64,000 bases of DNA. It comes from Gammaproteobacteria bacterium. GTDB taxonomy: Bacteria > Pseudomonadota > Gammaproteobacteria > DATFLL01. A program made the translations under genes and the position numbers. The notes beneath the pieces were generated by a model. It did no database searches, was not told where the DNA came from, and saw only the letters and a program-made list of their open reading frames with translations. Positions 4,239 through 33,815 of the stretch are shown here, piece by piece. The first letter of the stretch is position 1. Each line of letters starts with the position of its first letter. The stretch spans positions 41,579 through 105,578 of the forward strand of contig DATFLL010000075.1 in the NCBI GenBank assembly GCA_035267785.1. The letters are read 5' to 3'.

Positions 4239-4516
4239 GGCGAATCCTCCTGACAGGCGAAATAAAGGCTCCTTCAAGTGATATCGACCACCCACCCGGC
4301 GTCTTGAACCGGCCCGAGAGATTGAGCACCGGCGTAGCGCCCCTTCACCCGTGGACCGACATCAGAGGTCACAATCTGACACGCCGCGTCACGGGTGCCT
4401 CTGATTATCACGAACTGAAGCGGATTTCCTGCCGTTTTGATTTGGCACGCGGATTGTATGGGTTAAGTGCGAATGTCAAATGGCCGTTACCCGGTCGTCA
4501 CAAAGGCTACCTGCGC

Positions 4517-4921: not shown

Positions 4922-4943
4922 GGCTTGGCCCGGCGAGGCCCGC

Positions 4944-6953: not shown

Positions 6954-7221
6954 GGCCAGCCCCCTGATTTTCGATACCTTTTCCCTACGGGTATCCGATA
7001 GGGTCCCACTATAGTCATCGGCAGGCGCAGAGCAAAGGTTGAGCCGCGTCCAACTGCCCGCAGGCCGGTTGCGGCCGGCCAATCGGAGCAGCCCGATCCG
7101 GGCCCGGTATGGTTTATACTGCGGGTTTTTAGCGTGGCCGCCCCGACATTGCCCACGGGCGGCCCCTGCATGCGTTCCCGCGCGGATGCCTATCCGGCGC
7201 GGCCAGTCCTGGAGTCCGTCG

Positions 7222-8907
7222 ATGACCGAGAAGCTCAACAAATACAGCGCCCGCATCACCCAGCCGAAGTCCCAGGGAGCCTCCCAGGCCATGCTCTACG
7301 GCACCGGCCTGACCGAAAAGGACCTGGACAAGCCCGAGGTCGGCATCTCCTCGGTCTGGTGGGAGGGCAACACCTGCAACATGCACCTCAACGACCTGGC
7401 CGCCAAGGTCAAGGAGGGCGTCGAGGCCGCGGGACTGGTGGGGATGCGCTTCAACACCATCGGTGTCTCCGACGGCATTTCCATGGGCACCGAGGGCATG
7501 AGCTACTCGCTGCAGTCGCGCGACCTCATCGCCGATTCGGTCGAGACGGTCATGAAGGGCCAGTGGTACGACGCGAACATCTCCCTGCCCGGCTGCGACA
7601 AGAACATGCCGGGCGTGCTGATTGCGATGGGGCGCGTCAACCGCCCCTCGCTGATGATCTATGGTGGGACCATCAAGCCCGGCTATACTGACAAGGGGCA
7701 CGAGGTGGTGGATATCGTCTCGGCCTTCCAGAGCTATGGCCAGTTCCTCGCCCAGCGCATCGACGAGACCGAGCGCCAGGACATCGTGCGCCACGCCTGT
7801 CCGGGGGCCGGCGCCTGCGGCGGCATGTATACGGCCAATACCATGGCCTCGGCAATCGAGGCCATGGGCATGTCCCTGCCCTACAGCTCCTCGACGCCGG
7901 CGGTCGATCCCCTGAAGCTCGACGAATGCGTTCGCGCCGGACAGGCCATTCGCCACCTGCTCGAGCGCGATATCAAGCCGCGCGACATCATGACCCGCGA
8001 GGCCTTCGAGAATGCGATGGTGATCGTGATGGCGCTGGGCGGTTCGACCAATGCCGTGCTGCATCTCATCGCCATGGCGCGTTCGGTCGAGGTGGACTTG
8101 ACCATCGACGATTTCCAGGCCGTCTCCGACCGGGTGCCCTTCCTCGCCGACCTCAAGCCCTCGGGCAAGTACGTGATGGAGGACCTGCACAACGTTGGCG
8201 GGACCCCGGCCGTGATGAAGTATCTGATGGAACAGGGCCTGATCAACGGCGATTGCCTGACCGTCACCGGCAAGACGGTCGCAGAGAACCTCGCCGATCT
8301 CCCGGGGCTGAGCGCCGGACAGGAGGTGTTCCGCCCGGTGGAGCGGCCCATCAAGGAGACCGGTCATATTCAGATCCTCAAGGGCAACCTCGCCCCGGGC
8401 GGATCGGTGGCCAAGATCACCGGCAAGGAGGGTCTGCAGTTCTCCGGTCCGGCCCGAGTGTTCGACTGCGAGGAAGACATGCTCAAGGGCCTGGAGGAGG
8501 GCCGCATCCGGAAGGGCGATGTGGTCATCATCCGCTACGAGGGACCGAAGGGTGGTCCGGGCATGCCCGAGATGTTGACGCCGACCTCGGCGATCATGGG
8601 GGCGGGCTTGGGCAGCGATGTGGCCCTGCTGACCGACGGACGCTTCTCCGGCGGTTCACACGGTTTCATCATCGGGCATATCGTACCCGAGGCGCAGGAA
8701 GGCGGACCGCTGGCGCTGGTGCGCGACGGTGACACGGTTACCATCGATGCCGCCCGGCGCGCCATCGAGGTCGATGTCGACGAGCAGGAGATGGCCCGCC
8801 GGCGCGAGGCGTGGCAGATGCCCCCCTATAAGGCGACCCGCGGAACACTGTCCAAGTACATCAAGAACGTCAAGAACGCCTCCGAGGGCTGTGTCACCGA
8901 CGAATAA
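7222..8907 (+). CDS. ilvD: Dihydroxy-acid dehydratase
   Basis: [30 protein letters not shown] ... CDKNMPG ... [16 protein letters not shown]. Full-length IlvD, 561 aa. Confidence 0.95.
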
Positions 8908-8930
8908 GCCTGCCGCCGTCGCCGGCACGC

Positions 8931-8963
8931 GCTCGTTCACGGGCGGTGCCGGCACCCTCTAAA
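8931..8963 (+). terminator. GC-rich hairpin downstream of ilvD (putative terminator)
   Basis: GCCGGCAC gcgctcgttcacgggcg GTGCCGGC is an 8-bp perfect stem. No strong T-tract follows. Confidence 0.35.
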
Positions 8964-9020
8964 GAATCTATGGATTGGCACGATAGAATAATTATATAAG
9001 GTTCCGATCAGGAGGCGGCC

Positions 9021-11666
9021 GTGCGCCGCCAAGGCCCGGGTAAGGGGGGAGCCGTCTGCGAGGGCGGCGCCGACACTCGGCGTATCTGCCAGGGTGGCTG
9101 CGTCTCGACTCTGACGTTGGACGGTTCCATGGCCGGTTCACGCGTTATCCGATTCCTGACCCAGAGCCTGCGGGGGCGCTACCTCGCGGTGGCCATCTCG
9201 CTGGGGCTCATCACTCTCATCACCGCCTGGTCCATGGGCTGGTATGTTTCGCGTGCCAGCCGTTCGAGCACGGCCCATATCGAGCAGCGCTATCGCATCC
9301 TTCAGGAGAGTCGGGGCATCCGCGACGCTGTTTGGCAGGCGGATTTCGCGCTGCAGTCCTATGCTCTGTCGCCGGACAGCGACACGCGCGCCACGGTGCA
9401 CCGAGGCATCGCCGTCGCCATTCAGCGTGTCGAACGCCTGCGCCGCCAGCCCGACCTCGACGACCCGCGCGTGCGCCAAGAGCTTCGTGTGCTCAGGAGC
9501 GAGCTGCAGAAGTTCGACAGTCAGGCGGCGGCGCTCATGCAGACGCGTGTGGATGTGGACGAGCTGTTTCCGGCCATAGGACTGGCCCGAACTTCCATGC
9601 TGCCCAAGCAGATCGGTTTCTATACGGCTGCGAACTTGGCAATGCGCGAGGCGGCCGAGGAGCACGGCCGTGACTCCGCCGACTATCGTCTATTCGAGGC
9701 GGCTCGTTATACCTGGTCGCAGATGATCGCGGCCTACCGCTTGTATCTCATCAATCGACTCGCCTCGCTGGGCGAGGTTAGGTTGACCAATCAGGCCGAG
9801 GACGTCGAACAGCTGTACGCGGTCGTCCAGGACAGGCTGGTGGCACTGCAGCGACTGAAGGCGCGCGGGCGTTTGGGTCTGCAGGGCTCGCAATCGCTGG
9901 AGGAAATGCAGGACCAGGCCGCCGAGTGGCAGCAGGATTTCACCACAGTGGTTGACATCGCGCGTTCGGACCGTTGGCGCACCGACATTCCCTTGTTCCG
10001 GCGTTCGATCGAGCCGCTGCTCGGTTCGATCTGGGAGCACCTGCAGGTCATCGATGAGCACTTGATGGGCGCGGCCGCCGCAGACGTGTCTCGCCTGGCT
10101 GAGGTGGCTGCGTCCATCAGTCACGCATTGTGGGTACTCAGTGGCGTGGCCATGCTGGTAATTGTCTTCGGATTTCGCCACTTCGAGCGTCGGGTACTGC
10201 GCCCGATGACCCAGGTCGCTAGAGCGCTGAAGAACGAGGCCATGGGTCGGTCCGACTTCGATTTGCCCACGCTGCCCGCGGTCAAGACCTGGGAGACGCA
10301 GAACCTGATCGATGCCTTCTCCGAGATGCGTCGCCAGGTGCATTCGCGTCAGCGCGAGCTCGAGCACCAGGCCCTACACGACGCATTGACCAACCTGCCC
10401 AATCGTACGCTGCTGCAGGACCGTCTACAGCAGAGCGTGGTCGTCGCCCAGCGCGAGGGTACCAGCACCGCGCTGCTGATCATGGACCTGGATCGCTTCA
10501 AGGAAATCAACGACACACTCGGCCATCATGTGGGCGACCTCGTGCTGCAGCAGGTCGGCGCCCGTTTGACCGAACTGCTGCGCGAAAGCGACACGGTCGC
10601 GCGCCTCGGCGGCGATGAATTTGCGATCCTGCTGCCCGGAGGCGGCGAAGAGGGTGCCGAGAGGATAGCCCGAAAGACATTGAATGCCCTGGAACGGGTA
10701 TTGCGCGTGGCGCACCACAATCTTTACGTCGGTGGGAGCATCGGCATCGCCCTGTCACCCGAACACGGCACCGATGTCCAGACACTGATGCAGCGCGCCG
10801 ATGTGGCGATGTATGTCGCCAAACGGAAGAACGTCGGTTACAGCGTCTATTCCAGCGCCCAGGACCAATACAGCGTCGGGCGTCTGGCGCTGGTCAGTGA
10901 GCTTCGCAGCGCCATCAATACCGATCAGTTGGAACTGCACTATCAGCCCAAACTCGACGTCAAGACCGGCCGCATGGTCGGTGTCGAGGCCCTGCTGCGC
11001 TGGGATCATCCGGTACGCGGCAACATTACGCCCGAGGAGATCATTCCCGTTGCCGAGCAGACCGGGCTCATCAAGCTCCTCACGCTCTGGGTACTCGAAC
11101 GGGCAATCCGGCAAACCGCTGAGTGGCGCCGTCGGGGACTGGACATTCACGTGGCGGTCAACCTGTCGGTGTGGAACCTCCACGACCCGGACCTCGAGCG
11201 CCAGATCGCCCACAGCCTGGATCAATGGGAGCTGCCTCCCGAGCGCCTCGTGCTGGAGATCACCGAAAGTGCGACCATGGCCGATCCCCATCATGCCCTG
11301 GAAACGCTGCTGCGCTTGGATGCCATGGGGATGCGCCTGTCCATCGACGACTTCGGCACCGGATTTTCATCCCTGGCCTATCTGAAAAAATTTCCCGTCG
11401 ACGAGCTCAAGATAGACAAGTCGTTCGTCATCGACACGTTCGTCGACGAAAACGATGCGGTCATCGTCCGCTCGACCATCGATCTTGCCCACAACCTGGG
11501 CCTGGAAGTGGTCGCCGAAGGGGTGGAGGAAAAGGACGTCTTCGACATGTTGTACGTCCTGGGCTGTGATATCGCCCAAGGACATTATTTCAGCCGGCCG
11601 CTGGCGCCGGCCGAGCTGTTTGAATGGGCGGCACGCCTCGGCGTTACAGGTGTGGAAGCCTATTGA
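9021..11666 (+). CDS. Membrane-anchored sensory diguanylate cyclase/phosphodiesterase (N-terminal sensor domain, TM segments, GGDEF + EAL)
   Basis: GGDEF motif RLGGDEFAILL and EAL motif EALLRWDHP with ELKIDKSFV. GTG at 9021 is preceded by AGGAGG at 5 nt. An alternative ATG at 9129 (MAGSRVIRFL) lies just before the first TM helix. Confidence 0.85.
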   Translation: MRRQGPGKGGAVCEGGADTRRICQGGCVSTLTLDGSMAGSRVIRFLTQSLRGRYLAVAISLGLITLITAWSMGWYVSRASRSSTAHIEQRYRILQESRGIRDAVWQADFALQSYALSPDSDTRATVHRGIAVAIQRVERLRRQPDLDDPRVRQELRVLRSELQKFDSQAAALMQTRVDVDELFPAIGLARTSMLPKQIGFYTAANLAMREAAEEHGRDSADYRLFEAARYTWSQMIAAYRLYLINRLASLGEVRLTNQAEDVEQLYAVVQDRLVALQRLKARGRLGLQGSQSLEEMQDQAAEWQQDFTTVVDIARSDRWRTDIPLFRRSIEPLLGSIWEHLQVIDEHLMGAAAADVSRLAEVAASISHALWVLSGVAMLVIVFGFRHFERRVLRPMTQVARALKNEAMGRSDFDLPTLPAVKTWETQNLIDAFSEMRRQVHSRQRELEHQALHDALTNLPNRTLLQDRLQQSVVVAQREGTSTALLIMDLDRFKEINDTLGHHVGDLVLQQVGARLTELLRESDTVARLGGDEFAILLPGGGEEGAERIARKTLNALERVLRVAHHNLYVGGSIGIALSPEHGTDVQTLMQRADVAMYVAKRKNVGYSVYSSAQDQYSVGRLALVSELRSAINTDQLELHYQPKLDVKTGRMVGVEALLRWDHPVRGNITPEEIIPVAEQTGLIKLLTLWVLERAIRQTAEWRRRGLDIHVAVNLSVWNLHDPDLERQIAHSLDQWELPPERLVLEITESATMADPHHALETLLRLDAMGMRLSIDDFGTGFSSLAYLKKFPVDELKIDKSFVIDTFVDENDAVIVRSTIDLAHNLGLEVVAEGVEEKDVFDMLYVLGCDIAQGHYFSRPLAPAELFEWAARLGVTGVEAY

Positions 11667-11687
11667 GCGCCGGTTGGCGCCAGCGGC

Positions 11688-12953
<1,266 letters not shown>

Positions 12954-16907: not shown

Positions 16908-17834
16908 ATGGGGACCTTGAGCTACAGCGTCGGCGATAAAGAACACAAGGTGCTGTGCAACAGCGTCTTGACCATCGGCCGTGACAAGAGCAACGACGTG
17001 GTGTTGAGCGATCTGATGGTCTCGCGCAACCATGCGGTCATCCGCCGCCTGGGCGATGGCGAGTATTATCTCATCGACAGCGGCAGCTCCAACGGCAGTC
17101 GCCTCAACGACCAACGCGTCGCCGCCCCGACCCGCCTGAGCGATGGCGATACCATCTGCATCGGTCGCACTTGTTTCGTGTTCAAGCAGGACGCCACACC
17201 ACGCCAGTACATCGATTCCCTCTCCTTTCAAGAGACGATTATCCTCGACAGCCCAGAGATCAAGGACATCACAATCCTCGTGGCCGACATTCGGGGGTTC
17301 ACCTCCCTGTCCGAGCAGGTGCCGATTCAGACACTCACCAAAATGATGAGCAAATGGTTTCACGACGTGAGCAACGTTATCTACAAGAACGATGGCGCGG
17401 TGGATAAATTTATCGGCGACTGCGTCTTTGCGCGTTGGGAGGCCGAGCAGGTACCGCGTAACGTCCTCAAGGCCATGAAGACGGCATGGCTAATCGGCGC
17501 GCTCACCGAGCGCCTGTCCGCCCACTTTCCCGAGCTTCCCGGCAAGCTGCGCATCGGCGTGGGTATCAACACGGGCAAGGCCTCGGTGGGAATCGGCGCG
17601 GACAACACGGCCCTGGGTGACGCGGTCAACACCGCCTTCCGGTTGGAGAGCGCGACGAAGGCCATCGGCACCGATGTGGTGATGAGCGCGAGCTCCTATA
17701 AACACCTGCCGGAACAGTTCTGGAAGGACAACGAGAGACGGGTGCGCCTGCGCGGGAAGAAGGAGCCCATGCGCGTCTGTGCGCTGAGCTTCCCCCAGCT
17801 CGAGGCGGTCTTGCAATCGGTGCGTATCGCCTGA
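16908..17834 (+). CDS. FHA domain fused to a class III adenylate/guanylate cyclase domain
   Basis: N-terminal FHA reads TIGRDKSNDVVLSDLMVSRNHAVI...YYLIDSGSSNGSRLN. C-terminal cyclase reads ILVADIRGFTSLSE ... DKFIGDCVFARWE ... LRIGVGINTGKASVG. RBS GGAGA. Confidence 0.8.
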   Translation: MGTLSYSVGDKEHKVLCNSVLTIGRDKSNDVVLSDLMVSRNHAVIRRLGDGEYYLIDSGSSNGSRLNDQRVAAPTRLSDGDTICIGRTCFVFKQDATPRQYIDSLSFQETIILDSPEIKDITILVADIRGFTSLSEQVPIQTLTKMMSKWFHDVSNVIYKNDGAVDKFIGDCVFARWEAEQVPRNVLKAMKTAWLIGALTERLSAHFPELPGKLRIGVGINTGKASVGIGADNTALGDAVNTAFRLESATKAIGTDVVMSASSYKHLPEQFWKDNERRVRLRGKKEPMRVCALSFPQLEAVLQSVRIA

Positions 17835-17868
17835 CTCCCCCGGAGCCCGGCCAATGCGCCGGGACGTT

Positions 17869-18300
17869 TCAGGAGGATGCCGGCGGTTCGTGGTCGTCGT
17901 GGGATTGCAGCAGCGTGATTTCCTGCAGCAGGGCCTCCATGTCCAGCTTGATGCGGTTGGCGATACGGGCGGCTTGATCGGCCTGCTCCCAGTCGTTGGA
18001 TTCGGGGTCCCCGCTGCGCATCACATTCTGGCCGCGGGCGGCGATGGCGGCCTCGTGGTCGGGAATGAACTGGCCGAGAAAGACGTAACCCTGGATCAAC
18101 CCGTCGCGCAGGCGTTCATCGCCGTCGCCCAGCTCCCAGAGCAGCAGTTGGATCGCCTCTTTGATCGTGTCGCGGTCGTGGGGAAGCAGTGATACCGGCA
18201 GTCCCGAGACCGAAGGTTCCACCTCGGAGAGTACGGCGCCGTAGTCGGTGAGAACCTTCTCCGCTGCCCTGACTCTCGCCTCGTATTGCGCCTCGTCCAC
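17869..18300 (-). CDS. Hypothetical protein (143 aa)
   Basis: ORF MDEAQYEARVRAAEKVLTDYGAVLSEV... with coding-like composition. No recognisable motifs. Confidence 0.45.
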   Translation of the reverse strand: MDEAQYEARVRAAEKVLTDYGAVLSEVEPSVSGLPVSLLPHDRDTIKEAIQLLLWELGDGDERLRDGLIQGYVFLGQFIPDHEAAIAARGQNVMRSGDPESNDWEQADQAARIANRIKLDMEALLQEITLLQSHDDHEPPASS

Positions 18301-18398: not shown

Positions 18399-18989
18399 TC
18401 AGTGCGTCCGCGGCAGCAGCCCACCGCCAGGCGCTGCGGCCGGACCAGGGGCGCTCGGGTTCAGGTAGTGTTGCAGGTCGGGCAGGTGATGGCCGTAAAA
18501 CCGAATCACGCCTTGTGGAGAGACCAGGACGATGGTGGGGGTGCCAATGACGCCATAGGCCTTGACGAGCGAGGGCTTCCGGGCGTCGTCGTTGAGTACC
18601 AGATAGTCGATGTCGTGATCTTCGACGTAGGCCTGAACGTCGGGTCGGTCCTCATAGCCGATGTCGATGGCCGCCAGGGTCAGCCCCTGATCGCGATAAC
18701 GCTCGTCGATCGCCTTGAAGTCCGGGATCAGGGCCTGGCAGAACGGACAATGCGTCGACCAAAACACCAGCAGCACGTAGCCCTGTTCGCGTAGCCCGTG
18801 CAGACTGTGGACCGTGCCGTCGAGCGCATCGAGCGTGAAGTCCGGCGCCACTGTGCCGATGCGTTGTCCGGGGAAGGAGGATTGCCGGGCGTCGCGGGCG
18901 GTGTCATCGGGTGTCGCAGCCAGCCCGGGCGGGGCCGCCAGGGCGAGCAGTACGACGAATATTGCTATTTGGTTCACAATACGGGACAT
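18399..18989 (-). CDS. Secreted thioredoxin-fold thiol-disulfide oxidoreductase (TlpA/redoxin family)
   Basis: Signal peptide MSRIVNQIAIFVVLLALAAPPGLAA. Active site FWSTHCPFCQ (CxxC). Confidence 0.8.
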   Translation of the reverse strand: MSRIVNQIAIFVVLLALAAPPGLAATPDDTARDARQSSFPGQRIGTVAPDFTLDALDGTVHSLHGLREQGYVLLVFWSTHCPFCQALIPDFKAIDERYRDQGLTLAAIDIGYEDRPDVQAYVEDHDIDYLVLNDDARKPSLVKAYGVIGTPTIVLVSPQGVIRFYGHHLPDLQHYLNPSAPGPAAAPGGGLLPRTH

Positions 18990-19121
18990 TTGGGCCTCCA
19001 CCCGGTACTGTCATTATTGCCAATGCGTGTGCCGCGCAGTATTGCCGACTCGGGACCTGTGTTAAAGTTCCGCGCGCTTGTGCCCAACGTTAGAGTGCCC
19101 GCCCAATCGGGCGCAGACAAA

Positions 19122-19874
19122 ATGACCGCAGAAATTGCCAATATAATAACGCTTCTCGGTGCGAAGGTCGTGCGCGTCGTCCCATGGCTGGGGCCGGCCG
19201 GAACCGCAACCTTCGCATTGCTGCTGCTTTGGCCGCGGATGCGCGGCAAGGTTCGTGAGCGGCGCATGCGCCGGGTCATCGAACGGTGCGGCCTCGATTT
19301 TGTCAAAGATGTCATGTTGCCCGATGGGATGGATGGCATTACTCACATCGATTATCTGCTGTTGCGGCCCGATACCATCGTCGTTGCCGACTTGAAGAGG
19401 TATCAGGGGATTCTGTTCGGTGCTGAGCACATCGACCAGTGGACGCAGCTCGTCGGTCAAAAAAGCTTCAAGTTCCCCAATCCGCTGTTCAAGAACGAGC
19501 TGGATGTGATGGCGGTGAAGGCCCAGGTGCCGGCGGCGCCGATTACCGGGCGCGTGATCTTCTCCGATGAAGGCAGTTTCCCCAAGGGTATCCCCGCCGG
19601 GGTTTCGATGCTCGGCACGTTGGCGCAGGATCTCGGCGTGAGCGGTTCGAGCGGCCAGGGTTCCGATGCCGCAGGCTCGGCGGCGCCCCGCGAGCCGTCG
19701 GCGGCGGTCGCCAGCGCGTGGCAGGCGCTGCGCAGCGCGCTGGCGCAGGCCAGCGCCGGCGGTGCGAGGGAGCGCGGGCGCGGCGGTGGCAGCGGCATTG
19801 TCATGGCCTCGCTGCTCCTGGCGCTCTCTTGTGCCTGGGCGCTGTGGATGCTGCGCGCCACGCTGTTCGGATAG
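19122..19874 (+). CDS. NERD (nuclease-related domain) protein with C-terminal membrane anchor
   Basis: MTAEIANIITLLGAKVVRVVPWLGPAGTATFALLLLWPRM, then NERD-type core HIDYLLLRPDTIVVADLKRYQGILFG..QW, a Ser/Gly/Ala linker, and a terminal helix IVMASLLLALSCAWALWML. Confidence 0.65.
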   Translation: MTAEIANIITLLGAKVVRVVPWLGPAGTATFALLLLWPRMRGKVRERRMRRVIERCGLDFVKDVMLPDGMDGITHIDYLLLRPDTIVVADLKRYQGILFGAEHIDQWTQLVGQKSFKFPNPLFKNELDVMAVKAQVPAAPITGRVIFSDEGSFPKGIPAGVSMLGTLAQDLGVSGSSGQGSDAAGSAAPREPSAAVASAWQALRSALAQASAGGARERGRGGGSGIVMASLLLALSCAWALWMLRATLFG

Positions 19875-19882
19875 GCACGACC

Positions 19883-20347
19883 ATGCTCGATTCGCTTCAA
19901 AAGCTCTTCGATCGGTATCTCGACCCTCAGGCCCCCGGCGGCGAGCGTGAGCGCCAGCAGGCGCTGCAGGTTGCCGCCGCGGCGCTGCTCATCGAAGTGA
20001 TGCAGGCGGACTATGATGTCAGTGATGACGAGCGCAGGGCGGTCACCCGCGCCGTTCGTCAGACGTTCCGCCTGTCCGAGGCGGAGGCCGGCGAGCTGAT
20101 ACACCGCGCCGAAAGCGAGGCGATGAACGCGACATCCCTCTATCAGTTCACCTCGCTCATCAACGATCGGTTCTCCTACTCGGACAAGGCCGACGTCATC
20201 GAGCAGATGTGGCAGGTGGCCTATGCCGACGGCGAGCTCGACAAATACGAAGAACACCTGATCCGCAAGGTCGCCGACTTGATTTACGTCTCCCACAGCG
20301 ATTTCATTCGCGCCAAGCTCAGGGCAGCGGGCGAGGAGGGCGCCTGA
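19883..20347 (+). CDS. TerB-family (tellurite-resistance TerB-like / DjlA N-domain-like) protein
   Basis: ALLIEVMQADYDVSDDERRAVTRAV ... DKADVIEQMWQVAYADGELDKYEEHLIRKVADLIYVSHSDF fits the TerB fold signature. Starts 9 nt after the NERD stop. Confidence 0.7.
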   Translation: MLDSLQKLFDRYLDPQAPGGERERQQALQVAAAALLIEVMQADYDVSDDERRAVTRAVRQTFRLSEAEAGELIHRAESEAMNATSLYQFTSLINDRFSYSDKADVIEQMWQVAYADGELDKYEEHLIRKVADLIYVSHSDFIRAKLRAAGEEGA

Positions 20348-20695
20348 GCGCGCAACCCCCTCGTCGGCCCGTGTGCCGACGTGCGTAGCAGCCGGTAGAG
20401 GGAACGCGTCATCGACGAACACGGCGCGCCATTCATGCCTCGTTATTGAAGCCGTATCGAATCGCCGGGATTGGAACGGCTGCATCGTCCCGGCCGGGCT
20501 GGCCCGGGGAGGGACACTGGTCCGGCAAATGTGATTCAATACATGACATGCGGTGGTTTGCACAATTATGGTATGAATGGATTAGACCATGAGTGAACCG
20601 GACCACGACCGGCGAAGGCGATCGGCTCAGGGTATGAGTGCATCGGAACCAATACGACGGGGGACGCACCTGTCAGGCGACTTGGGCGCGGGGGA

Positions 20696-21193
20696 ATGAC
20701 GTTGCGGCGTGTGACGCGGCGTTTGCGATTGGCGCTGTTCTGGGGCGCCGCTTTCGGTCTGTTCCTTTCGTGGGCGCCCGCGGCTCCGGCGGCGAGCGAT
20801 TCGGCGCATCCGGCGACCGAAGGGCGCGTGGCGCGCGCCTTGTTTACCACCGACGTGGTCAATCGCGAGCCGGTGGATCGCGTCCTGGTACTCAGTAATG
20901 CCAAGGACGAGATCTACTTCTTCACCGATCTGCGCCACATGCAGGGCAAGACGATCATCCATCGCTGGATGTACAAGGGCAAGGTGGTGGCGAGCGTCCC
21001 CTTCAAGGTCAAGGGCCCGCGTTGGCGGGTCTATTCCAGAAAGCAGCTGGATCCCAAGGAACTGGGCAAGTGGACGGTGATCGTCACCGACAGCAAGGGC
21101 TGGCCGCTGAAGGCGGGGATATTCCGCTATGTCGCCGCGGGTGGTTCGGGCAAGAACGCCCCCGTCATTCTGCCGCCAGACGCCGACGAATAA
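20696..21193 (+). CDS. Secreted protein, DUF2914-like
   Basis: Signal peptide LRLALFWGAAFGLFLSWAPAAPAAS. RWMYKGKVVASVPFKVKGPRWRVYSRKQL resembles the DUF2914 C-terminal domain (from memory). Confidence 0.5.
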   Translation: MTLRRVTRRLRLALFWGAAFGLFLSWAPAAPAASDSAHPATEGRVARALFTTDVVNREPVDRVLVLSNAKDEIYFFTDLRHMQGKTIIHRWMYKGKVVASVPFKVKGPRWRVYSRKQLDPKELGKWTVIVTDSKGWPLKAGIFRYVAAGGSGKNAPVILPPDADE

Positions 21194-21232: not shown

Positions 21233-24200
21233 CTATTGGGCGCCGGGGTGGCCGGGTACCGGCGGTGCCGGTGTAGTGGACGTTGTTCCGGCCGGCGCGG
21301 ACGGTTCGGGCGCCGGGGCGGCAACGACCGGCGGGGCCGACGACGGCGCGTTGTCCGCCTCGCTGCGGGTGTCGTTGGCGTTGGGCCGCGCGTCCGGGGA
21401 TCCCTTGAACATCGGCACGCTGTTCAATTTCTTGCGCCACTCGCGCAGCAGCGTTGAGAACTCGCCTTCGGCCTGTTCGACCACCTTGGCTTCCTGGCGC
21501 GAACGCGCCTCGGCCAGGCGCGCTGCGCGTTCACGCCGGGCGGTGGCACTGTCCGCGGACTGTTCGGCCTGTCCGCTGGCGAGTCGCGCTTTCAGGCTGG
21601 ACCAGGGCACCTCACTGATGCCGTAGGCGACTCCGACAGCCACAACGAGCGTGGCGGCAATCGCGACGATGCCGCGCCGGGAGGGGCGGGGCGTCGACCG
21701 CGCCTTGGGGGCCGGCCGGTTCGTGCTGCGCTTGGAGCCGCTGCCGATGCTACCGGCGCCATAGGAGCTCGGCGAGGCCTCGAATACCGCCCGGTTGGCG
21801 CTCGGTGCCTCGGTTACAGTCGGCGCCGCTTCGGCGGCCGGCGGCGGGGCGGGACTGGCGGCAGGGGGCGGCGGGGCGGGTTTGACCTCCGGGGCGGGGG
21901 CCGGCTCCGGCTCCTCAATGCTGATGAATTCGTCTCCGAATCCCTCGTCATCGATCGTGACGGTCGCGGGCTCGGGCGAGGGGGTGGGCGGCGCCGCCGG
22001 CGCAGCCGGTGTCGCCCTTGGCGGGGGGATGTCGTTCAGCTTGCCGCCCGAATTGGGCTCGACAAAGACGAAGATGTCCTCTTCGCCTTCCAGGATCAGC
22101 TTATTATCCACCCGGCGCAGCCCGGTATGGATGGCGTGCTCGGCGCCGCTGCGCTGCTGGCGCCGCTTCTTTTCGACCGTTTGCAGGCGCTTGGCGATGG
22201 TCGCGGCCATTTGGCGCGCCTCTTCGGCTTTTTTGAGGCGCGATTCGGCCGTGGTCAACACGTCGGCTGCGCGAGACTCGGCCTGCTGTCGGGCGGCCTC
22301 GGCGGCCGCGGCTCGGCGCGCCTCCTCTTCGGCCCGTCGCTGGGCCGCCTCGAGCTCGGCCTGGGCACGGCGGGCCGCCTCGGCCTTGTTGCGGGCCGCT
22401 TCACGCATGGCCTCTTCGCGGGCCGCCTCGGCTTCCGCCTTGAGACGTTCGGCCTCTTCGAGGGCTTCGCGCCGCATTCTTTCGGCCTCTTCACGCAGGC
22501 GCCGCGCCTCCTCCTGGGCGGCCTGGCGGGCCGCCTCGGCCGCCTTGGTCTGCTCGGCGGCCTCCATCGCCTGGCGCCGGGCGGCCTCGATCTCGGCCTC
22601 TTTACGCGCGCGCTCCTCGGCCAGGATGCGTTGTGCCTCCTGTTCCGCCTCTCTGCGGGCCGCGTCTGCCTCCTGCTCGGCGCGTCGGCGTGCCGATTCG
22701 GCCTCGGCCTTGAGGCGATTGGCCTCCTCCAGCGCCGCCAGACGCGCGGCCTCCGCGGCCTTGGCCTGCCGTTCGGCCTCAGCGGCCTGACGGCGAGTGG
22801 CCTCGATTTCGGCCTCCTTACGCCCCATCTCCTCGGATCGGACCTTTTCGGCCTCGGCCTGGGCTGCAGCGCGGGTCTTCTCTGCCGCGGCCGAGCGCTG
22901 GGCCTCCTCTTCGGCGCGACGCCGCGCCGCCTCGGCCTCGGCCTTGAGGCGGTCCGCCTCCGCTTGGGCCGCCACACGGGTCTGTTCGGCCGCTTGGGAG
23001 TGTTGGGCGACCTGCTGAGCCGCGGCCTTGCGTGCGGACTCGGCCTCGGCGCGGACCTTTTCCAGCTCCATTTCCGCCGCGCGCAGCGCCGATTCATGGT
23101 TCTTGGCGAGCTTGGTCTGCTCGGCGGCTCGGCGCTTGATATCGCCGATCTCGTCTTTTTGTTCCGCTGCCTGGGCTTGGCGCAGGCGCTCGGCCTCCTG
23201 GTCGGCGGCCTGGCGCGAAGCCTGGGCCTCCGCCTTGAGTCGGTCGGCCTCGGACTCGGCTTGCTTCTGGGCCGATTCGGCCTGTGCCAGTCGTCTTTTC
23301 GCGTCGTCGGAGGAGCCGGCGGCCTTGCTCGGCGCGGCGGATGCGGTAGCGGCGGCCTGCTTGGCGCCCGTTTGCGCGGCGGCGCCCTGCAGCCCCTCCT
23401 CGAGGACGTAGGCGGGCAGACCCTGTTGACTCATCAGGAAGGCGGCGGCGCGGCTGCGTGAGCCGTCGTCGCAGTAGACGATATAACGCTGCTCGGCCTC
23501 GAGGTTGCCGAGCTTGAGCCTGAGCACGGACAGCGGGATATTGACGGCCCCGGGCAGTGCACCTTGATGGAACTCCTCCGGACCGCGTACGTCGACAAGC
23601 ACGGCGCCGCTCTTGGTCAGGGCGGGAAGGTCTTTGGCCGAGATCGAACGCAGCAGCGGGTTGACCAACAGCGCGTTGAAATCATCCTTGCTCAGGCGCA
23701 TCAGAACGCCGTCTTCTAGCATGGTGATGGTGGCGTTGCGCGTACCGCCGGTGATGAGCGCCTCTTCGCCGAAACCGTCGCCCACGCCCAGGGTCGCCAG
23801 GTTGACGTCCTTCATCTTGGGGGCCGGGCGGCGCGAGACCTGGCAGCGGCCCAGCTTGACGATGTAGTAGTACTCGTCCCGGTCGCCCTGGTGGATGATT
23901 ACCGTGCCCTTTTTCGCCGGGACCTCTTCCATGCGCATGATCAGCGCCTGGATGTTCTCGGTGGGCAGGTTGAGGAAGGCCGGCGATTGAAGGAAACGGA
24001 ACATCCAGACGCTGGCGTCGTCGTCGCCCGAGATCTCGGTGACCTCATAGGCCCCCGGCGGGCCGTCGCTCAGCAGGATTTCGAGCAGGTCGGTATCCAC
24101 CGAAAGAATCGTCGCGGCGGTCTTGGTGCGTGCCGTGCAGGTGCGCGGCAGCTCGGGCACCAGGGGCTCGCGGGCCTCGGCGGTCTTGGCCTTGACCACA

Positions 24201-24418
24201 CGGCTGCCCAGCTTGCCGTGGGCGGTCAGCTCGATCTGACCGGACAGGAGGTACAGCGCACGGCGATCGCGTTCGCCCTGGCGGAATAACAGGCGGCCGG
24301 CGGGCATGTCTTCGACTTCCGCCTTTGCGACGAGCTCGTCGAGCTTGTCGTAGCTCAGCGAGCCGAAGGGCTCGAGGGTCTTGACGAGCTTTCTGTCGAT
24401 GCTGGTCTTGGATGCCAT
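21233..24418 (-). CDS. Large multidomain membrane protein: two cyclic-nucleotide-binding domains, a catalytic rhodanese domain, a roughly 400-aa Ala/Glu/Arg-rich coiled-coil repeat region, a TM helix and a Pro-rich C-terminal tail
   Basis: CNB motif FGEEALITGGTRNATITMLEDGVLMRLSKDDF. Rhodanese LVDVRGPEEFHQGALPGAVNIP...YCDDGSRS. Repeats RLKAEAESARRRAEQEA / KEAEIEA(T/A)RRQA. TM RRGIVAIAATLVVAVGVAYGI. Tail rich in PAPxP. ATG at 24418 (MASKTSIDRKLVKTLEPFG). Confidence 0.8.
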   Translation of the reverse strand: MASKTSIDRKLVKTLEPFGSLSYDKLDELVAKAEVEDMPAGRLLFRQGERDRRALYLLSGQIELTAHGKLGSRVVKAKTAEAREPLVPELPRTCTARTKTAATILSVDTDLLEILLSDGPPGAYEVTEISGDDDASVWMFRFLQSPAFLNLPTENIQALIMRMEEVPAKKGTVIIHQGDRDEYYYIVKLGRCQVSRRPAPKMKDVNLATLGVGDGFGEEALITGGTRNATITMLEDGVLMRLSKDDFNALLVNPLLRSISAKDLPALTKSGAVLVDVRGPEEFHQGALPGAVNIPLSVLRLKLGNLEAEQRYIVYCDDGSRSRAAAFLMSQQGLPAYVLEEGLQGAAAQTGAKQAAATASAAPSKAAGSSDDAKRRLAQAESAQKQAESEADRLKAEAQASRQAADQEAERLRQAQAAEQKDEIGDIKRRAAEQTKLAKNHESALRAAEMELEKVRAEAESARKAAAQQVAQHSQAAEQTRVAAQAEADRLKAEAEAARRRAEEEAQRSAAAEKTRAAAQAEAEKVRSEEMGRKEAEIEATRRQAAEAERQAKAAEAARLAALEEANRLKAEAESARRRAEQEADAARREAEQEAQRILAEERARKEAEIEAARRQAMEAAEQTKAAEAARQAAQEEARRLREEAERMRREALEEAERLKAEAEAAREEAMREAARNKAEAARRAQAELEAAQRRAEEEARRAAAAEAARQQAESRAADVLTTAESRLKKAEEARQMAATIAKRLQTVEKKRRQQRSGAEHAIHTGLRRVDNKLILEGEEDIFVFVEPNSGGKLNDIPPPRATPAAPAAPPTPSPEPATVTIDDEGFGDEFISIEEPEPAPAPEVKPAPPPPAASPAPPPAAEAAPTVTEAPSANRAVFEASPSSYGAGSIGSGSKRSTNRPAPKARSTPRPSRRGIVAIAATLVVAVGVAYGISEVPWSSLKARLASGQAEQSADSATARRERAARLAEARSRQEAKVVEQAEGEFSTLLREWRKKLNSVPMFKGSPDARPNANDTRSEADNAPSSAPPVVAAPAPEPSAPAGTTSTTPAPPVPGHPGAQ
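22300..23400. repeat. Imperfect in-frame tandem repeats (about 150-nt periodicity) inside the large protein gene
   Basis: Recurring DNA blocks such as ctcggcctcggccttgaggcg(a/g)t(t/c)(g/c)gcctcc at about 22,690 and 22,930, with a diverged copy near 22,430. Protein-level repeats KEAEIEATRRQAAEAERQAKAAEAARLAALEEANRLKAEAESARRRAEQEA and KEAEIEAARRQAMEAAEQTKAAEAARQAAQEEARRLREEAERMRREA. Confidence 0.5.
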
Positions 24419-24601
24419 GTCGGCCGTGCCTGGTCTTACCGTGCTTGGGGGCGTGGTTCCCGCGACGGTGTGCGGGACGCGGCGCAAGGGCGCCGCTCGC
24501 CGAGCGCCGCGCCTTTTCAAACAAGCTTAGTCGCCCACGTCGGGGCGCATTGTGAAACACCTCACAAATGAATGAGATAGCGGCCCCATCTAAACAGCTT
24601 A

Positions 24602-25306
24602 CTAGAACCTGCGGGCGAAAAACATCTCTGCCCCGCGAAACTGGCCCCCATCGACCCGCAGACCGACGTGGCCGGTGCGGTCCACATTGACGTCCAGCCC
24701 CCCGAAATAGCCGGTCCTGGTGTCCTGGTGGAAGCCGGTTGTCCGGTTGACGCTGCCGCTCAGGCGCTGATCGCCGTTGAGGACGCCATAACGGGCGCCG
24801 GCGAACAGACGCAGCCGCGCGCTGGGGCGAACGCCCGCGACCACCTCGGCCCACGCCTGATGCCAGGTGAGGGTGATGTCCTGGTCGCTCGCCGGAGAGG
24901 TATCCAGGCGGTGGTAGCTGTAATGAACGGACACGGCGGCATCGAACCGGCGCGAGGAGAGCAGATGGCCGCGCAGGGCTATCCCCCCGTAGTAGCCGTT
25001 GGGCGCTTGGCCGGCGAGGTCCGGATTGTCTGCCTGGGTGATGTCTTCGTAACCCGCGCTGAGCAGGCCGTCCAGCCCGGGCCCCAGGCTCTGGGTCAAG
25101 GTCACCCCCAGGCGCTCGACGGTGCTGTCGTAAGTAACGCCGTCGTAACGCAGCCGGGTGTTGCTGCGCTCCAGGTGCAGGGCGAAATCGACCAGTTGAT
25201 CGCCGAGGTCGGGTCCGCGATAGGTGCCGGCCGCGGCGATGTTGGACAGGGCGCCCGACACGAGTATCAGCGCCAGCCAGGCGAATCCGATGGGATGTCG
25301 GTACAT
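24602..25306 (-). CDS. Outer-membrane beta-barrel protein (small OMP, OmpW/OmpA-barrel-like)
   Basis: Signal peptide MYRHPIGFAWLALILVSGALSNIAAA. Alternating amphipathic strands. Terminal aromatic ...FFARRF is typical of OMP C-termini. Lies upstream of, and on the same strand as, the large CNB protein. Confidence 0.65.
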   Translation of the reverse strand: MYRHPIGFAWLALILVSGALSNIAAAGTYRGPDLGDQLVDFALHLERSNTRLRYDGVTYDSTVERLGVTLTQSLGPGLDGLLSAGYEDITQADNPDLAGQAPNGYYGGIALRGHLLSSRRFDAAVSVHYSYHRLDTSPASDQDITLTWHQAWAEVVAGVRPSARLRLFAGARYGVLNGDQRLSGSVNRTTGFHQDTRTGYFGGLDVNVDRTGHVGLRVDGGQFRGAEMFFARRF

Positions 25307-32147: not shown

Positions 32148-33671
32148 TCACGCCGCGTCCGCGGCGCTGCCGCCCGTGTGGCCGCGGTAGGCCGCGATCA
32201 GGCGCATGGCTTGGGTGCGGCAGCGTGCGTCCAGCGCCATGGCGTGCTCCAACGCGGTAACGCCCGCCGGTTCGCCGCAAGACAGCAGCAGTCGACCGGC
32301 CTCGAGCAGTTGAGCGGCGTCGTCAGGATGTTCGCTCACCAGGCGCTTGAACAGCGGTACGGCGGCGGACTTGTCGAGATGTTTGGCCACAAGGCGTGCG
32401 TGCATCCATGCTTCGCGCGGTTCGAGAGCACCGCGTTGGGCACGTGCATTGAGCGTCTTGAGTACCTGCAGCTCGCGCTGATACTTGGTATGGCGCTGCT
32501 GCCACTCGGCCAGGTGTCCGCGCAGCCAGCTTTTGTCCAGTCGGGCGCACAGATTGGGCAGGGCGGCGCCGAGCAGCGCGGCCGTCGCCGTTTCTCCGCC
32601 GGTCGCCGCGGGTAGGTGACCGTGTTCGTGACCGATGTTGTCGAGCCGCTCGGCCAGGCCGGGCTGCAGCGCATCGCCGTCGCGACGCATGGCCTCGGTC
32701 AGCCACCGCTGGGGCTCGCTGCGCTGCAGCAGCGTGGGCAGCGCCTGGATCAGCCGGCTGTAGGGTCCCATCGGCGGAGTCGCGTGTTTGTATGCCAGGC
32801 GCCAGAAGGGCGGCCAGAATCGCTCCTTGAGCAGACGTGGATAGACGGTCAACGCCGACACGAGCTCGACGACGACGCGATCGTTGACGGTATCCAGTGC
32901 GTATTGATCGCCCTCGAGCTCATCGCGACGCACCGTATAGCGGGCGGCGAACGTGAACAGCCGCGCGTACCAAAGAAAGCACACCTGTAGCAGCCAACGC
33001 ACTTTCGGTGGCTGCAGACGATAGAGCTTCGCGTACTGCAACCAGGCCTCGTGAAGACGATGCAACCAGCCGGTGATGCGGTTGTGGCGCAGACTGGCCT
33101 GGCCGATGGCGCGGGCCAGCGCGCCTTCGGCGTGTTCGGGTGACAGTGCCGCCATCAGCGGCAGGCCGATGCGAAGGTGCAGGCGCGGGGCGAAGGGAAA
33201 TCCGTTCAGCGGGACGTAACCCATGGTTACCGCCATCTCGCCGGTCAAGGTGACGCGGTGGGCCGGGCTTGCCCCGTAGGTGGTGTACAGGGCCGCGAGA
33301 TGTTCGAACAGGGCGGGGCATTCGGACTGCTGAAGCTCGATGCCGCCGGCGTCGCCCCGGTCGGGCTTGAGCCGCAGCAGTGCGACGGTCACTCCAGTGC
33401 CAAACACCGCCGCGACGACCTCGCCCGCAACTGCGGCCCAGCCCAGCGGCCCGTCGGCCGCCATCACGCTGTCGGGCAGGTCGACCAGACAATAGATGGC
33501 CAGTATCGGGAAGGCGAGCAGCCACACATAACCCAGGACGGCGAGCGCCGCGGTCAATGCCAGATACAGGCTCGGCAGATTTCGCGTCAGGCGGGCCAGC
33601 GCCGAGCGGCGGCGCCCGCGCCGTGGTTTACGGCCGGTGCGCTCGAGCAGCTGTTTGAGGGGTTGCCACAT
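32148..33671 (-). CDS. Hypothetical polytopic membrane protein with helical C-terminal region
   Basis: N-terminal TM helices (LYLALTAALAVLGYVWLLAFPILAIYCLV). Contains HEHGH about 370 aa in. The ORF is long and coding-like. Convergent with hrpA, 10 nt apart. Confidence 0.55.
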   Translation of the reverse strand: MWQPLKQLLERTGRKPRRGRRRSALARLTRNLPSLYLALTAALAVLGYVWLLAFPILAIYCLVDLPDSVMAADGPLGWAAVAGEVVAAVFGTGVTVALLRLKPDRGDAGGIELQQSECPALFEHLAALYTTYGASPAHRVTLTGEMAVTMGYVPLNGFPFAPRLHLRIGLPLMAALSPEHAEGALARAIGQASLRHNRITGWLHRLHEAWLQYAKLYRLQPPKVRWLLQVCFLWYARLFTFAARYTVRRDELEGDQYALDTVNDRVVVELVSALTVYPRLLKERFWPPFWRLAYKHATPPMGPYSRLIQALPTLLQRSEPQRWLTEAMRRDGDALQPGLAERLDNIGHEHGHLPAATGGETATAALLGAALPNLCARLDKSWLRGHLAEWQQRHTKYQRELQVLKTLNARAQRGALEPREAWMHARLVAKHLDKSAAVPLFKRLVSEHPDDAAQLLEAGRLLLSCGEPAGVTALEHAMALDARCRTQAMRLIAAYRGHTGGSAADAA

Positions 33672-33815
33672 GGCCGGCCTCCTGCGGCGCGGAGTATGCA
33701 TATCAATATAGCAGCAGACCATACGGCATCAGCGGCTCATCGCCGCGACCAAGGTCACAGTTCGATGCCGCGGCCGGCGTGCCCGGCAGGTCCGGAGCGA
33801 TGCGGGCGGGGCCGC

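Follow-up and report, generated by a model that had tools for sequence, protein, structure and literature searches.

What does a protein do that carries two cyclic-nucleotide-binding (CNB) domains and a rhodanese domain at its N-terminus, a membrane anchor near its C-terminus and a long rod in between? The question is raised by a minus-strand gene for 1061 amino acids (aa) in a 64,000-nucleotide stretch of gammaproteobacterial DNA, which is called the window here (assembly GCA_035267785.1, contig DATFLL010000075.1, positions 41,579 to 105,578). The initial annotation of the window had proposed that the product is a cAMP- or cGMP-responsive envelope tether, or a redox or sulfur-transfer regulator. 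The gene, its domains, residues, topology, family and synteny were now computed. The 1061-aa protein is very probably a genuine inner-membrane cyclic-nucleotide-binding protein, and its gene adds a new member to a large, catalogued family that is unnamed and unstudied. A more far-reaching reading, namely that it is anchored in the membrane as a scaffold or regulator of an envelope machine and is gated by cAMP, is the one preferred here, but it is held tentatively and with slightly more doubt than belief.

The sensor head, the rod and the membrane anchor

The open reading frame (ORF) spans 21233-24520, and its first methionine codon, the ATG at 24418, yields a protein of 1061 aa. In a sequence comparison the homologues begin at the equivalent residue, and thus the length and the start that had been given before are right. 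The GC content at third codon positions (GC3) is 0.83, which is typical for coding DNA in this window of 65% GC. Pfam revealed two stretches of cNMP_binding (PF00027; cNMP, cyclic nucleoside monophosphate; E 1.9e-24, 85.9 bits at a cut-off of 27.5) and one Rhodanese domain (PF00581) at aa 261-345 (E 3.9e-14, 53.4 bits at a cut-off of 22.2). All were above the gathering scores, in accordance with the initial annotation, which had described two CNB domains and a rhodanese domain with its cysteine in YCDDGSRS. NCBIfam gave only sub-threshold rhodanese and CNB matches, and the TolA, TonB and FimV models of Pfam and NCBIfam did not match at all. The gene is not an artefact, nor is it a FimV or TolA decoy. 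An exact-sequence look-up retrieved no identical protein. The gene and the parts of its product, all on the minus strand, are the following:

21233-24418, minus strand: whole gene (label BIG), 1061-aa membrane-anchored cNMP-binding/rhodanese rod protein (ORF, translation, homologues)
24014-24418, minus strand, aa 1-135: CNB1, a CNB fold with a diverged phosphate-binding cassette, EAREPLVPELPRTCTARTK (second Pfam stretch)
23654-24013, minus strand, aa 136-255: CNB2, canonical, cassette G215-F-G-E218-E-A-L...R227-N-A-T (best Pfam stretch, 168-251)
23369-23653, minus strand, aa 256-350: rhodanese domain, Cys316 in the six-residue loop CDDGSR(S) (Pfam)
22169-23293, minus strand, aa 376-750: charged helical rod (predicted helices, composition, repeats)
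22049-22138, minus strand, aa 761-790: conserved beta motif, GLRRVDNKLILEGEEDIFVFVEP (alignment of 60 homologues, predicted strands)
21677-22048, minus strand, aa 791-914: cytoplasmic disordered linker rich in Pro and Ala (24% Pro, low model confidence)
21608-21676, minus strand, aa 915-937: single C-terminal transmembrane helix, N-in/C-out (Kyte-Doolittle value 2.32)
21236-21607, minus strand, aa 938-1061: periplasmic tail, an amphipathic helix (EAKVVEQAEGEFSTLLREWRKKL) followed by a Pro-rich extension (predicted helix 959-999)

The helices and strands were taken from an AlphaFold2 (AF2) model that was built on a 60-sequence alignment. Its segments and their predicted local distance difference test scores (pLDDT) were:

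aa 10-345: head with CNB1, CNB2 and rhodanese, pLDDT >90
aa 376-436, 445-588 and 603-750: three long helices, pLDDT 55-84
aa 766-786: three short strands, pLDDT 64-79
aa 789-958: disordered, pLDDT <50 (this includes the linker)
aa 959-999: helix, pLDDT 67-84

The two CNB domains turned out to be of different quality. CNB2 aligns with the CNB-B domain of PKG I (domain E 1e-12), the FGE...R.AT cassette is intact, and all 60 aligned homologues share F216, G217, E218, R227, N228 and A229. CNB1 weakly matches PKG and CRP-family CNB domains of the PDB. In an alignment with CNB domains of known structure Ala82-Arg83 occupy the canonical Gly-Glu positions of its cassette, and therefore the ligand site of CNB1 is diverged. 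The canonical Glu position is not kept as Glu across the family in a 14-sequence alignment, while Pro91 is invariant and Arg92 is at least 90% conserved (14- and 60-sequence alignments). The domain search thus found both families above threshold, but one of the two CNB cassettes is diverged. The CNB assignment had been said to fall if the phosphate-binding Arg and Glu were missing; since CNB2 keeps both, it stands for this domain, and it is CNB1 that is without the Gly-Glu pair. A Foldseek comparison of the head had its best matches with the tandem CNB-A/B of PKG I-beta (4z07, E 5.5e-19) and with regulatory (R) subunits of PKA (E 1e-16 to 1e-17 over about 250-280 columns). The target-normalised TM-score against 4z07 was 0.43 and the root mean square deviation was high, and thus the relative orientation of the CNB domains differs or is uncertain.

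The rhodanese domain has sub-threshold NCBIfam matches to GlpE, PspE and MoeB-rhodanese, and it matches GlpE, PspE, YgaP and other rhodaneses in the PDB. Cys316 is invariant in 14 sequences of 33-65% identity and at least 90% conserved in 60 homologues. Among the 120 best homologues 66 have a parsable loop, and three of these carry Ser in place of Cys316, a named Thiohalophilus sequence among them. The loop residues other than Cys316 and Ser322 vary freely. As judged from its six-residue Cys loop, C316-D-D-G-S-R(-S322), the domain is of the sulfurtransferase type.

The region that follows had been described as a TolA-like coiled coil of about 400 residues. A helical rod of 375 aa is indeed present, and it consists of 31% Ala, 20% Glu, 15% Arg and 4% Leu. 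Internal repeats of 72-78 aa were detected at the protein level, with 30 of 40 residues identical at an offset of 72, while at the DNA level no tandem repeat was seen in the rod except one 27-bp doublet. The coiled coil is the part of the description that did not stand. Neither in the rod of the 1061-aa protein nor in 119 homologues was a heptad (3.5-residue hydrophobic) periodicity detected; the median z was 1.1 and z exceeded 3 in 3%, in a crude test that Ala-based cores could escape. Large hydrophobic residues make up only 10-15% of the rod. By this crude test and by the scarcity of large hydrophobic residues a classical coiled coil is doubtful. Because the heptad periodicity was undetected, the rod is described here as a charged helical spacer, which looks like a single alpha-helix or like TolA domain II. 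Its length varies from 270 to 615 aa across homologues.

Three conserved elements follow that were absent from the initial annotation. The beta motif has the core K(L/T)ILEGEEDIF(V/I)F..P at aa 771-788, in which all 60 homologues are identical at L776, D781, F783, F785 and P788. The transmembrane segment contains the motif (I/L)A(A/I/L)AA(S/T), and the periplasmic helix the motif EAE.EF..LL..W(R/K), with W994 conserved to at least 90%. A profile search with this C-terminal module (beta motif, transmembrane helix and periplasmic helix) for other sensor heads retrieved 7 short fragments only. A correction concerns the Pro-rich regions: the linker at aa 791-914 is a second one, which lies on the cytoplasmic side.

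The predicted topology, a cytoplasmic sensor and rod with a Pro-rich tail in the periplasm, agrees with the analysis. Aa 915-937 is the sole segment of the protein with a Kyte-Doolittle value of at least 1.8, and 56 of the 59 homologues listed have an equivalent single C-terminal segment. Eight Lys or Arg residues are found within the 21 residues that precede it, at the end of the linker, and therefore the orientation is N-in/C-out according to the positive-inside rule, which was applied by inspection. The Pro-rich tail was also recovered, as a lineage-specific extension with 25% Pro at aa 1001-1061. The part behind the transmembrane helix is 124 aa long in the window protein and 255 aa in one homologue (P0001), and it comprises 58-97 aa in most homologues. 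As it is that short in most relatives, the proposed envelope-spanning tether is unlikely, for the protein alone, to be a property of the family.

Family and gene neighbourhood

The architecture is not rare. It belongs to no named family, in agreement with the initial annotation; Pfam and NCBIfam yield domain-level matches only. A word-indexed search with the 1061-aa protein retrieved 510 homologues with E<1e-10. The best 120 of them are 734-1302 aa long (most 930-1300), all contain PF00027 and PF00581, and their heads are 52-67% identical, while the rod is variable. They stem from metagenome-assembled genomes (MAGs) of Gammaproteobacteria, from Thiohalophilus and from Thioalkalispiraceae, and they are named merely "cyclic nucleotide-binding domain-containing protein". 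When the head was used as the query of an exhaustive phmmer search, at least 1271 representatives of clusters at 50% identity matched (E<1e-30). Among the 150 best matches the head is always at the N-terminus and the total length ranges from about 300 to 1795 aa. The combination CNB-CNB-rhodanese is, by these matches, a widespread N-terminal module. It occurs in a stand-alone form of about 350 aa, in a class of 1000-1300 aa that includes the window protein, and in a class of 1500-1800 aa, of which representatives were numerous in the exhaustive search.

One of the large paralogues, encoded on a Sedimenticolaceae chromosome (OZ245051.1; locus L004, 9971-15025), consists of head, rod, transmembrane helix and, in the periplasm at its C-terminus, an FGE-sulfatase (SUMF1-like) domain. 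From this layout the plan of cytoplasmic head, rod, transmembrane helix and variable periplasmic module seems to be general across paralogue classes. L004 and L009 form a class of 1674-1684 aa with a heptad-looking coiled coil, and they share no neighbours with the family of the window gene. Two further head-and-rod paralogues are encoded back to back and are divergently transcribed (L006:8342-11005 and L008:85-2768); they are without a transmembrane helix and have a conserved acidic C-terminus (LINELAARLDRPED and LLDELANRLRDPDEDD).

To compare neighbourhoods, genomes were scanned for relatives with a single protein query, which gave 13 loci. In total, 15 loci of the family proper were tallied (the window, L001, L012, L014-L022 and L029-L031). 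L019 and L022 are short on the downstream side, and L019 and L020 do not show the region upstream of the outer-membrane-protein-like (OMP-like) gene, so that 13 loci are informative for each side. The closest relative is L018 on a 173-kb metagenome contig, with a head identity of 87% and full synteny from the Band7 gene to the methyltransferase gene. Three neighbours in the window are needed for the argument:

24602-25306, minus strand: 234-aa exported protein, probable small outer-membrane beta-barrel (signal-like N-terminus, C-terminal FFARRF)
20696-21193, plus strand: exported DUF2914 protein, convergent neighbour (Pfam E 2.2e-18, signal-peptide-like N-terminus)
16908-17834, plus strand: FHA and class III nucleotide cyclase (Pfam FHA E 6.7e-21, Guanylate_cyc E 9.6e-14)

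On the upstream side two arrangements were found. In six loci (the window, L015, L018, L022, L029 and L031) a divergent pair of genes for a CFA-synthase and an FAD-oxidoreductase is followed by the OMP-like gene. In the other seven of the 13 loci (L001, L012, L014, L016, L017, L021 and L030) the gene ends a same-strand motor cluster with the order x182, TPR protein (about 626 aa), TPR protein (about 933 aa), TPR protein (about 211 aa), a protein of about 89 aa, MotA/ExbB-like, two ExbD-like proteins and a TonB-like protein; in L017, for example, the order is TPR626-TPR933-TPR211-x89-TolQ-like-TolR-like-TolR-like-TonB-like. Four of the seven have a further gene for a small protein between this cluster and the family gene; the small protein is OMP-like in L016 and GspC/PDZ-like in L014, L017 and L030. 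This motor cluster, which the initial annotation had missed, is the strongest clue from the context. The best NCBIfam score of the ExbB-like protein is TolQ-like (E 5e-22), both ExbD-like proteins are TolR-like, and the TonB-like protein carries the AgmX/PglI C-terminal domain above the cut-off (80.6 bits versus 40). In Myxococcus xanthus, GltJ and GltG were formerly called AgmX and PglI (PMC3169522, Table 1). The TonB-like protein also matches GltJ, far under the equivalog cut-off. By these matches the cluster of the relatives likely belongs to the Agl/Glt core family.

The exported PDZ genes are located at L014:9081-9734, L017:9049-9660 and L030:8858-9550, and they match the NCBIfam GspC model with E 8e-22, which is below its cut-off. 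The GspC-like and the OMP-like family are unrelated, yet they fill the same upstream slot.

The OMP-like gene lies 183 nucleotides upstream of the 1061-aa gene on the same strand, and it immediately precedes the family gene in eight loci, which represent both upstream arrangements and include L016. The claim of a small, exported, barrel-like gene upstream therefore gains from the comparison of neighbourhoods, in which it is a conserved neighbour. The product has a hydrophobic, signal-peptide-like N-terminus (LILVSGALSNIAAAG), and F-x-R-x-F is found at the C-terminus of all eight OMP-like homologues, both judged by inspection. The match to OMP_b-brl (PF13505) stayed below the threshold (E 0.0025, 18.4 bits, cut-off 28.7), and seven of the eight homologues match equally weakly (best E 1.6e-4). 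An AF2 model reached a pLDDT of 31, with an alignment of only 4 sequences, and a profile search with the family found no match in the PDB. A 100% identical protein (P0121) from a Gammaproteobacteria MAG is annotated only as a hypothetical protein. As judged from its sequence, the 234-aa protein is probably a small outer-membrane beta-barrel. The 183-nucleotide spacer (24419-24601) contains neither a sigma-70-like promoter nor an intrinsic terminator on the minus strand; it holds a GC-rich inverted repeat (GGCGCGGCGC...GCGCCGCG) that is not followed by a T-run.

The downstream order is constant: DUF2914, TerB, NERD, AhpC/TSA-like, a 137-aa protein, FHA-cyclase, DUF2786/DUF7168 and NadA, with the TerB and AhpC/TSA-like genes being carried by only some of the loci. 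DUF2914 is the most persistently linked neighbour. It is directly downstream and convergent in 13 loci, namely in 10 that include L024 with a head identity of only 43-45% and additionally in L029-L031. In the literature searched no paper on DUF2914 was evident from titles and abstracts.

The position and the domains of the cyclase gene agree with what had been described. Guanylate_cyc scored 51.8 bits at a cut-off of 21.9. In an alignment with CyaB of Pseudomonas aeruginosa (3r5g) and CyaC of Spirulina (1wc0) the window cyclase has the adenine-specifying Lys (DKFIGD), a Thr in NTALGD, the two Asp residues that bind metal, and the transition-state Asn and Arg (NTAFRLES). Since all of them are in place, the protein is predicted to be an active adenylate cyclase of the class IIIb type. 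Thr instead of Asp at the second substrate-specifying position marks class IIIb, to which CyaB, CyaC and soluble adenylate cyclase belong, and characterised members are stimulated by bicarbonate or CO2. Such a response, if it is present in the window cyclase, would be of interest as an input signal in an autotroph.

Synteny of the FHA-cyclase gene was seen in each of the 13 related loci whose sequence extends to its position. As NadA and PepN travel in the same block, this synteny by itself is weak evidence. A different arrangement was found at L025 (metagenome contig ERZ724516 NODE-1504, 1665-12202), which encodes a distant relative with 35% head identity, a stand-alone CNB-CNB-rhodanese protein of 374 aa. 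Here, a single-strand array has the order CHASE2-Ser/Thr kinase, PP2C, FHA, CHASE2-class III cyclase, phosphodiesterase (PDE)-like, head and ATPase, in which the PDE-like protein resembles class-II cAMP-phosphodiesterases of the MBL type and the ATPase is a GAF-MshEN-T2SSE protein (MshE/PilB-like). The recurrence of FHA, class III cyclase and head in two unrelated arrangements is good evidence that the head would be a cyclase-fed cNMP effector under phospho-threonine control. Thus the proposal that the cyclase supplies the ligand is supported by the comparison of loci, with the reservation just made for synteny. L025 also suggests that the head may act as a soluble effector beside an ATPase of the type IV pilus or type II secretion type.

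Several further observations were made in the region. The trio on the strand opposite to the 1061-aa gene (18798-21193, plus strand) encodes a NERD membrane protein, TerB (about 19718-20347) and the exported DUF2914 protein; the listed ORFs of NERD and TerB overlap, which leaves their true starts uncertain, and the defence models of PADLOC did not match any of the three. Behind the cyclase gene the ORF at 17854-18192 (plus strand) is probably spurious, and 17869-18300 (minus strand) encodes a protein of about 137-143 aa, which is convergent with the cyclase and conserved in nine syntenic loci. An 888-aa GGDEF-EAL protein is encoded at 9000-11666 (plus strand), and its N-terminal 450 aa or so are without a Pfam domain. 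GGDEF proteins recur near L014, L016, L017 and L030, so that genes for cyclic di-GMP and cAMP are found in the same chromosomal region. Finally, the ORF at 32148-33728 (minus strand, 526 aa, GC3 0.79) has no Pfam match, is 62% identical in L018 and adjoins HrpA and a Band7/NfeD pair.

A proposed envelope scaffold and its rival explanations

The reading preferred here combines these results as follows. The N-terminal 345 residues would form a cytoplasmic head, in which a tandem of CNB domains like those of PKA-R and PKG is packed with the rhodanese domain. CNB2, which has kept all canonical ligand-contact residues, most likely binds cAMP, and CNB1 is probably an allosteric partner or binds differently. 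The probable source of cAMP is the syntenic FHA-adenylate cyclase, the FHA domain of which would put synthesis under phospho-threonine control. Cys316 may be a persulfide/redox sensing site or a site of regulated sulfur transfer. The rigid charged rod would link the head to the beta motif, the Pro-rich linker, the transmembrane helix and the short periplasmic helix, and ligand binding in the head would alter what the rod, the beta motif and the anchor recruit to the membrane or keep there. In sister lineages the envelope machine would be the upstream TPR/TolQ/TolR/TolR/GltG-like cluster together with an OMP-like or GspC/PDZ-like protein. In the window lineage only the OMP-like gene still adjoins, and the 64 kb contain no motor cluster. 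Three steps of this chain are inferred: which ligand is bound, how it gates the protein, and that the motor is a partner.

A number of observations weigh against this chain. A phmmer search (E<1e-4) found no homologues of ExbB, ExbD, TonB or the TPR proteins of the cluster in the 64-kb window, and in five other loci as well the motor cluster is not adjacent; therefore, the protein must work either without adjacency or without the motor. The Agl/Glt label of the relatives' cluster rests on one above-threshold domain model and on gene order, and the matches to the equivalog models of GltG (the TonB-like protein, E 3e-12, 45.9 versus 650) and GltE (45.4 versus 225) are far under the cut-offs. The distant head relatives L002-L011 have no neighbours in common with the family proper, which neither supports nor refutes the link to the motor. 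The cyclase gene is 3.4 kb away, five genes of mixed orientation lie in between, and the two are not in the same operon. Furthermore, the synteny was observed among fairly related genomes (NadA is about 74% identical), and the block also holds NadA and PepN. Whether the ligand is cAMP, cGMP or another nucleotide is not readable from the sequence. The transmembrane helix is absent from the AF2 model, and in the literature searched no characterised counterpart of the architecture was evident from titles and abstracts.

The rhodanese domain might itself be the output. In this case the protein would be a cAMP-regulated, membrane-tethered sulfurtransferase or a persulfide relay or sensor, with the CNB domains as the switch and the rod and the anchor for positioning, and it would link sulfur handling to the second-messenger state of sulfur-oxidising Gammaproteobacteria. 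The above-threshold domain with its six-residue loop and the conservation of Cys316 described above speak for it, as do the named hosts of relatives, which belong to lineages of sulfur oxidisers (Thiohalophilus, Thioalkalispiraceae, Chromatiales, Chromatiaceae, Sedimenticolaceae and Ectothiorhodospiraceae), and an exported thiol oxidoreductase of the AhpC/TSA type in the syntenic block. However, the cysteine is replaced by Ser in the three sequences mentioned, including that of Thiohalophilus, the other loop residues vary, genes of sulfur metabolism (sox, dsr, tusA-like) are not among the conserved neighbours, and a rod of 270-615 aa, the beta motif, the transmembrane helix and the periplasmic helix would be left unexplained. 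We regard this explanation as unlikely. Somewhat less likely still is that the protein works on its own, independently of a Tol-like motor, as a cytoskeletal scaffold or polar landmark like FimV/HubP/TspA or PopZ. It would then bring client proteins to a cell site, and cAMP would control where it is localised. CbpA, a soluble cAMP-binding protein of P. aeruginosa, is a precedent. The long, charged and partly repetitive rod, the disordered Pro-rich linkers and the single transmembrane helix would fit, rod lengths differ as freely as those of landmark proteins, and the gene persists where the motor cluster is not adjacent. Yet Pfam and NCBIfam found no LysM domain, FimV core or FimV C-terminal motif, the topology is the reverse of that of FimV/HubP, and genes for pili, flagella or chemotaxis are not among the conserved neighbours of the family proper.

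The synteny could also be purely historical, and the protein an orphan cNMP-binding membrane protein, for example a buffer or sink for cAMP. The housekeeping genes NadA, PepN, GATase and MBL are kept in the same block, the upstream side was rearranged at least once (motor type versus CFA-synthase type), and distant relatives have unrelated neighbours. What makes this improbable is the operon of L025, which couples the head with cyclase, PDE-like protein and FHA in a different arrangement and in a distant lineage, the adjacency of DUF2914 down to a head identity of 43-45% (L024), and the adjacency of the OMP-like gene in both upstream arrangements, including L016. By far the least probable alternative is a Pycsar-like anti-phage pair, in which a class III cyclase would signal to a CNB membrane effector that kills the cell. 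The cyclase is generically similar to the PycC models of PADLOC (best E 6.6e-17), there is a weak match between CNB1 and the CNB domain of PycTIR (E 0.003), and NERD and TerB genes are nearby. Against this, neither the 1061-aa protein nor its neighbours match a PADLOC effector model (PycTM, PycTIR), the cyclase has the purine (Lys/Thr) signatures of adenylate cyclases and is closest to CyaB and CyaC, it is encoded 3.4 kb from the CNB protein and not adjacent to it, and the genes are part of a chromosomal block that is stable across many genomes beside NadA and housekeeping genes, and not of a variable island. A known defence system was rejected, because PADLOC yields generic cyclase similarity only.

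If the scaffold reading is true, its weight lies in the biology of the second messenger. Bacterial cAMP biology is mostly that of CRP-type transcription factors, and to our knowledge few non-transcriptional cAMP effectors are understood. The family would then be a widespread post-transcriptional effector that combines a PKA-R-like sensor and a conserved thiol with a long, membrane-anchored mechanical spacer. Its neighbourhood also bears on how autotrophic sulfur oxidisers connect FHA/phospho-threonine signalling, cAMP and the envelope. Should the motor link prove wrong, what is left is still a new and well-defined domain architecture in cyclic-nucleotide signalling, which deserves a family name.

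Comparison with known systems

The head resembles PKA-R and PKG in having two consecutive CNB domains of the same order and fold, with the FGE...R.A(T) cassette in CNB2. It differs in that the 1061-aa protein is bacterial, has no evident dimerisation/docking domain, inhibitor sequence or kinase partner, and is without Gly-Glu in CNB1, and in that a rhodanese domain, a rod of 375 aa and a membrane anchor follow the tandem in the same chain. The N-terminus starts directly with CNB1, and no kinase gene is among the annotated neighbours, although no search was aimed at an inhibitor segment or a kinase partner. With GlpE, PspE and YgaP the protein shares the rhodanese fold and the six-residue Cys loop; in contrast to them, the matches are under the equivalog cut-offs, the domain lies inside a sensor head, and the cysteine is lost in a few members.

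TolA and TonB are similar in their N-in/C-out single span, in a rod like TolA domain II and in Pro-rich segments like those of TonB, and genes of the TolQ/ExbB and TolR/ExbD type are nearby in the relatives. However, the rod of the 1061-aa protein is cytoplasmic and not periplasmic, the transmembrane helix is C-terminal and lacks His or an SHLS-type motif, and the periplasmic part comprises about 60-125 aa. A TolA/TonB paralog was rejected on the grounds of this C-terminal helix and cytoplasmic rod and because no TolA model, TonB_C (PF03544) or TolA-III matched. FimV, HubP and TspA are likewise large, acidic or charged, repetitive scaffolds with a single span, but they have a periplasmic N-terminus with LysM, a cytoplasmic C-terminus, that is, the opposite orientation, and FimV-specific motifs, and they are without CNB and rhodanese domains. 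A FimV/HubP paralog was rejected because of the reversed topology and because LysM and FimV did not match in Pfam and NCBIfam at E<=0.1. The initial annotation had considered that a homology search might reveal a FimV or TolA paralog; no such model matches, and the topology does not fit.

The closest functional parallel is found in M. xanthus. AglZ, a cytoplasmic platform protein, combines a receiver domain with a Pro-rich sequence and a long coiled coil (PMC11135422), and it acts at the cytoplasmic face of a TolQ/TolR-type motor with the TonB-like GltG/GltJ (PMC11135422, PMC3169522). Like AglZ and also FrzS, the 1061-aa protein has a signal-receiving domain at the N-terminus, a Pro-rich segment and a helical stretch of great length, and the relatives of its gene end a TolQ/TolR/GltG-type cluster. 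The differences are that AglZ has a receiver domain, is soluble, forms filaments and has no transmembrane helix, while CNB and rhodanese domains and a transmembrane helix are present here, that the rod is without heptads, and that the window is without the motor cluster. A sequence similarity was neither detected nor expected, and thus the resemblance is one of analogy and not of homology.

The gene order of the relatives can be compared with that of the Agl/Glt system. The core complex consists of gltD, gltE, gltG and gltC (TPR, TonB-like) and of aglR, aglQ and aglS, which encode one TolQ-like and two TolR-like proteins; it is clustered in several Gammaproteobacteria, in which its function is unknown (Luciano et al. 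2011, PMC3169522). The G1 cluster of Myxococcus contains gltD, gltE, gltF (89 aa), gltG, the product of which has a cytoplasmic FHA domain, and gltH, which encodes a 209-aa outer-membrane barrel (PMC3169522). The order in the relatives runs parallel to it: large TPR, small TPR, a protein of about 89 aa, the motor, TonB-like and a small outer-membrane protein. The 1061-aa protein might then be the missing cytoplasmic control platform of a gammaproteobacterial Agl/Glt-type core complex, that is, a membrane-anchored analogue of AglZ that reads cAMP and persulfide or redox state and couples these signals to a proton-driven TolQ/TolR/GltG-like motor and to small outer-membrane partners, which we consider a rather long shot. 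On that account cAMP from the FHA-gated, possibly bicarbonate-responsive class IIIb cyclase would replace phosphorylation and MglA as the input. The neighbourhood would give a testable handle on the role of an Agl/Glt-like core complex in non-gliding Gammaproteobacteria, in which the OMP-like neighbour would take the position that GltH, the small outer-membrane barrel, has in the cluster of Myxococcus.

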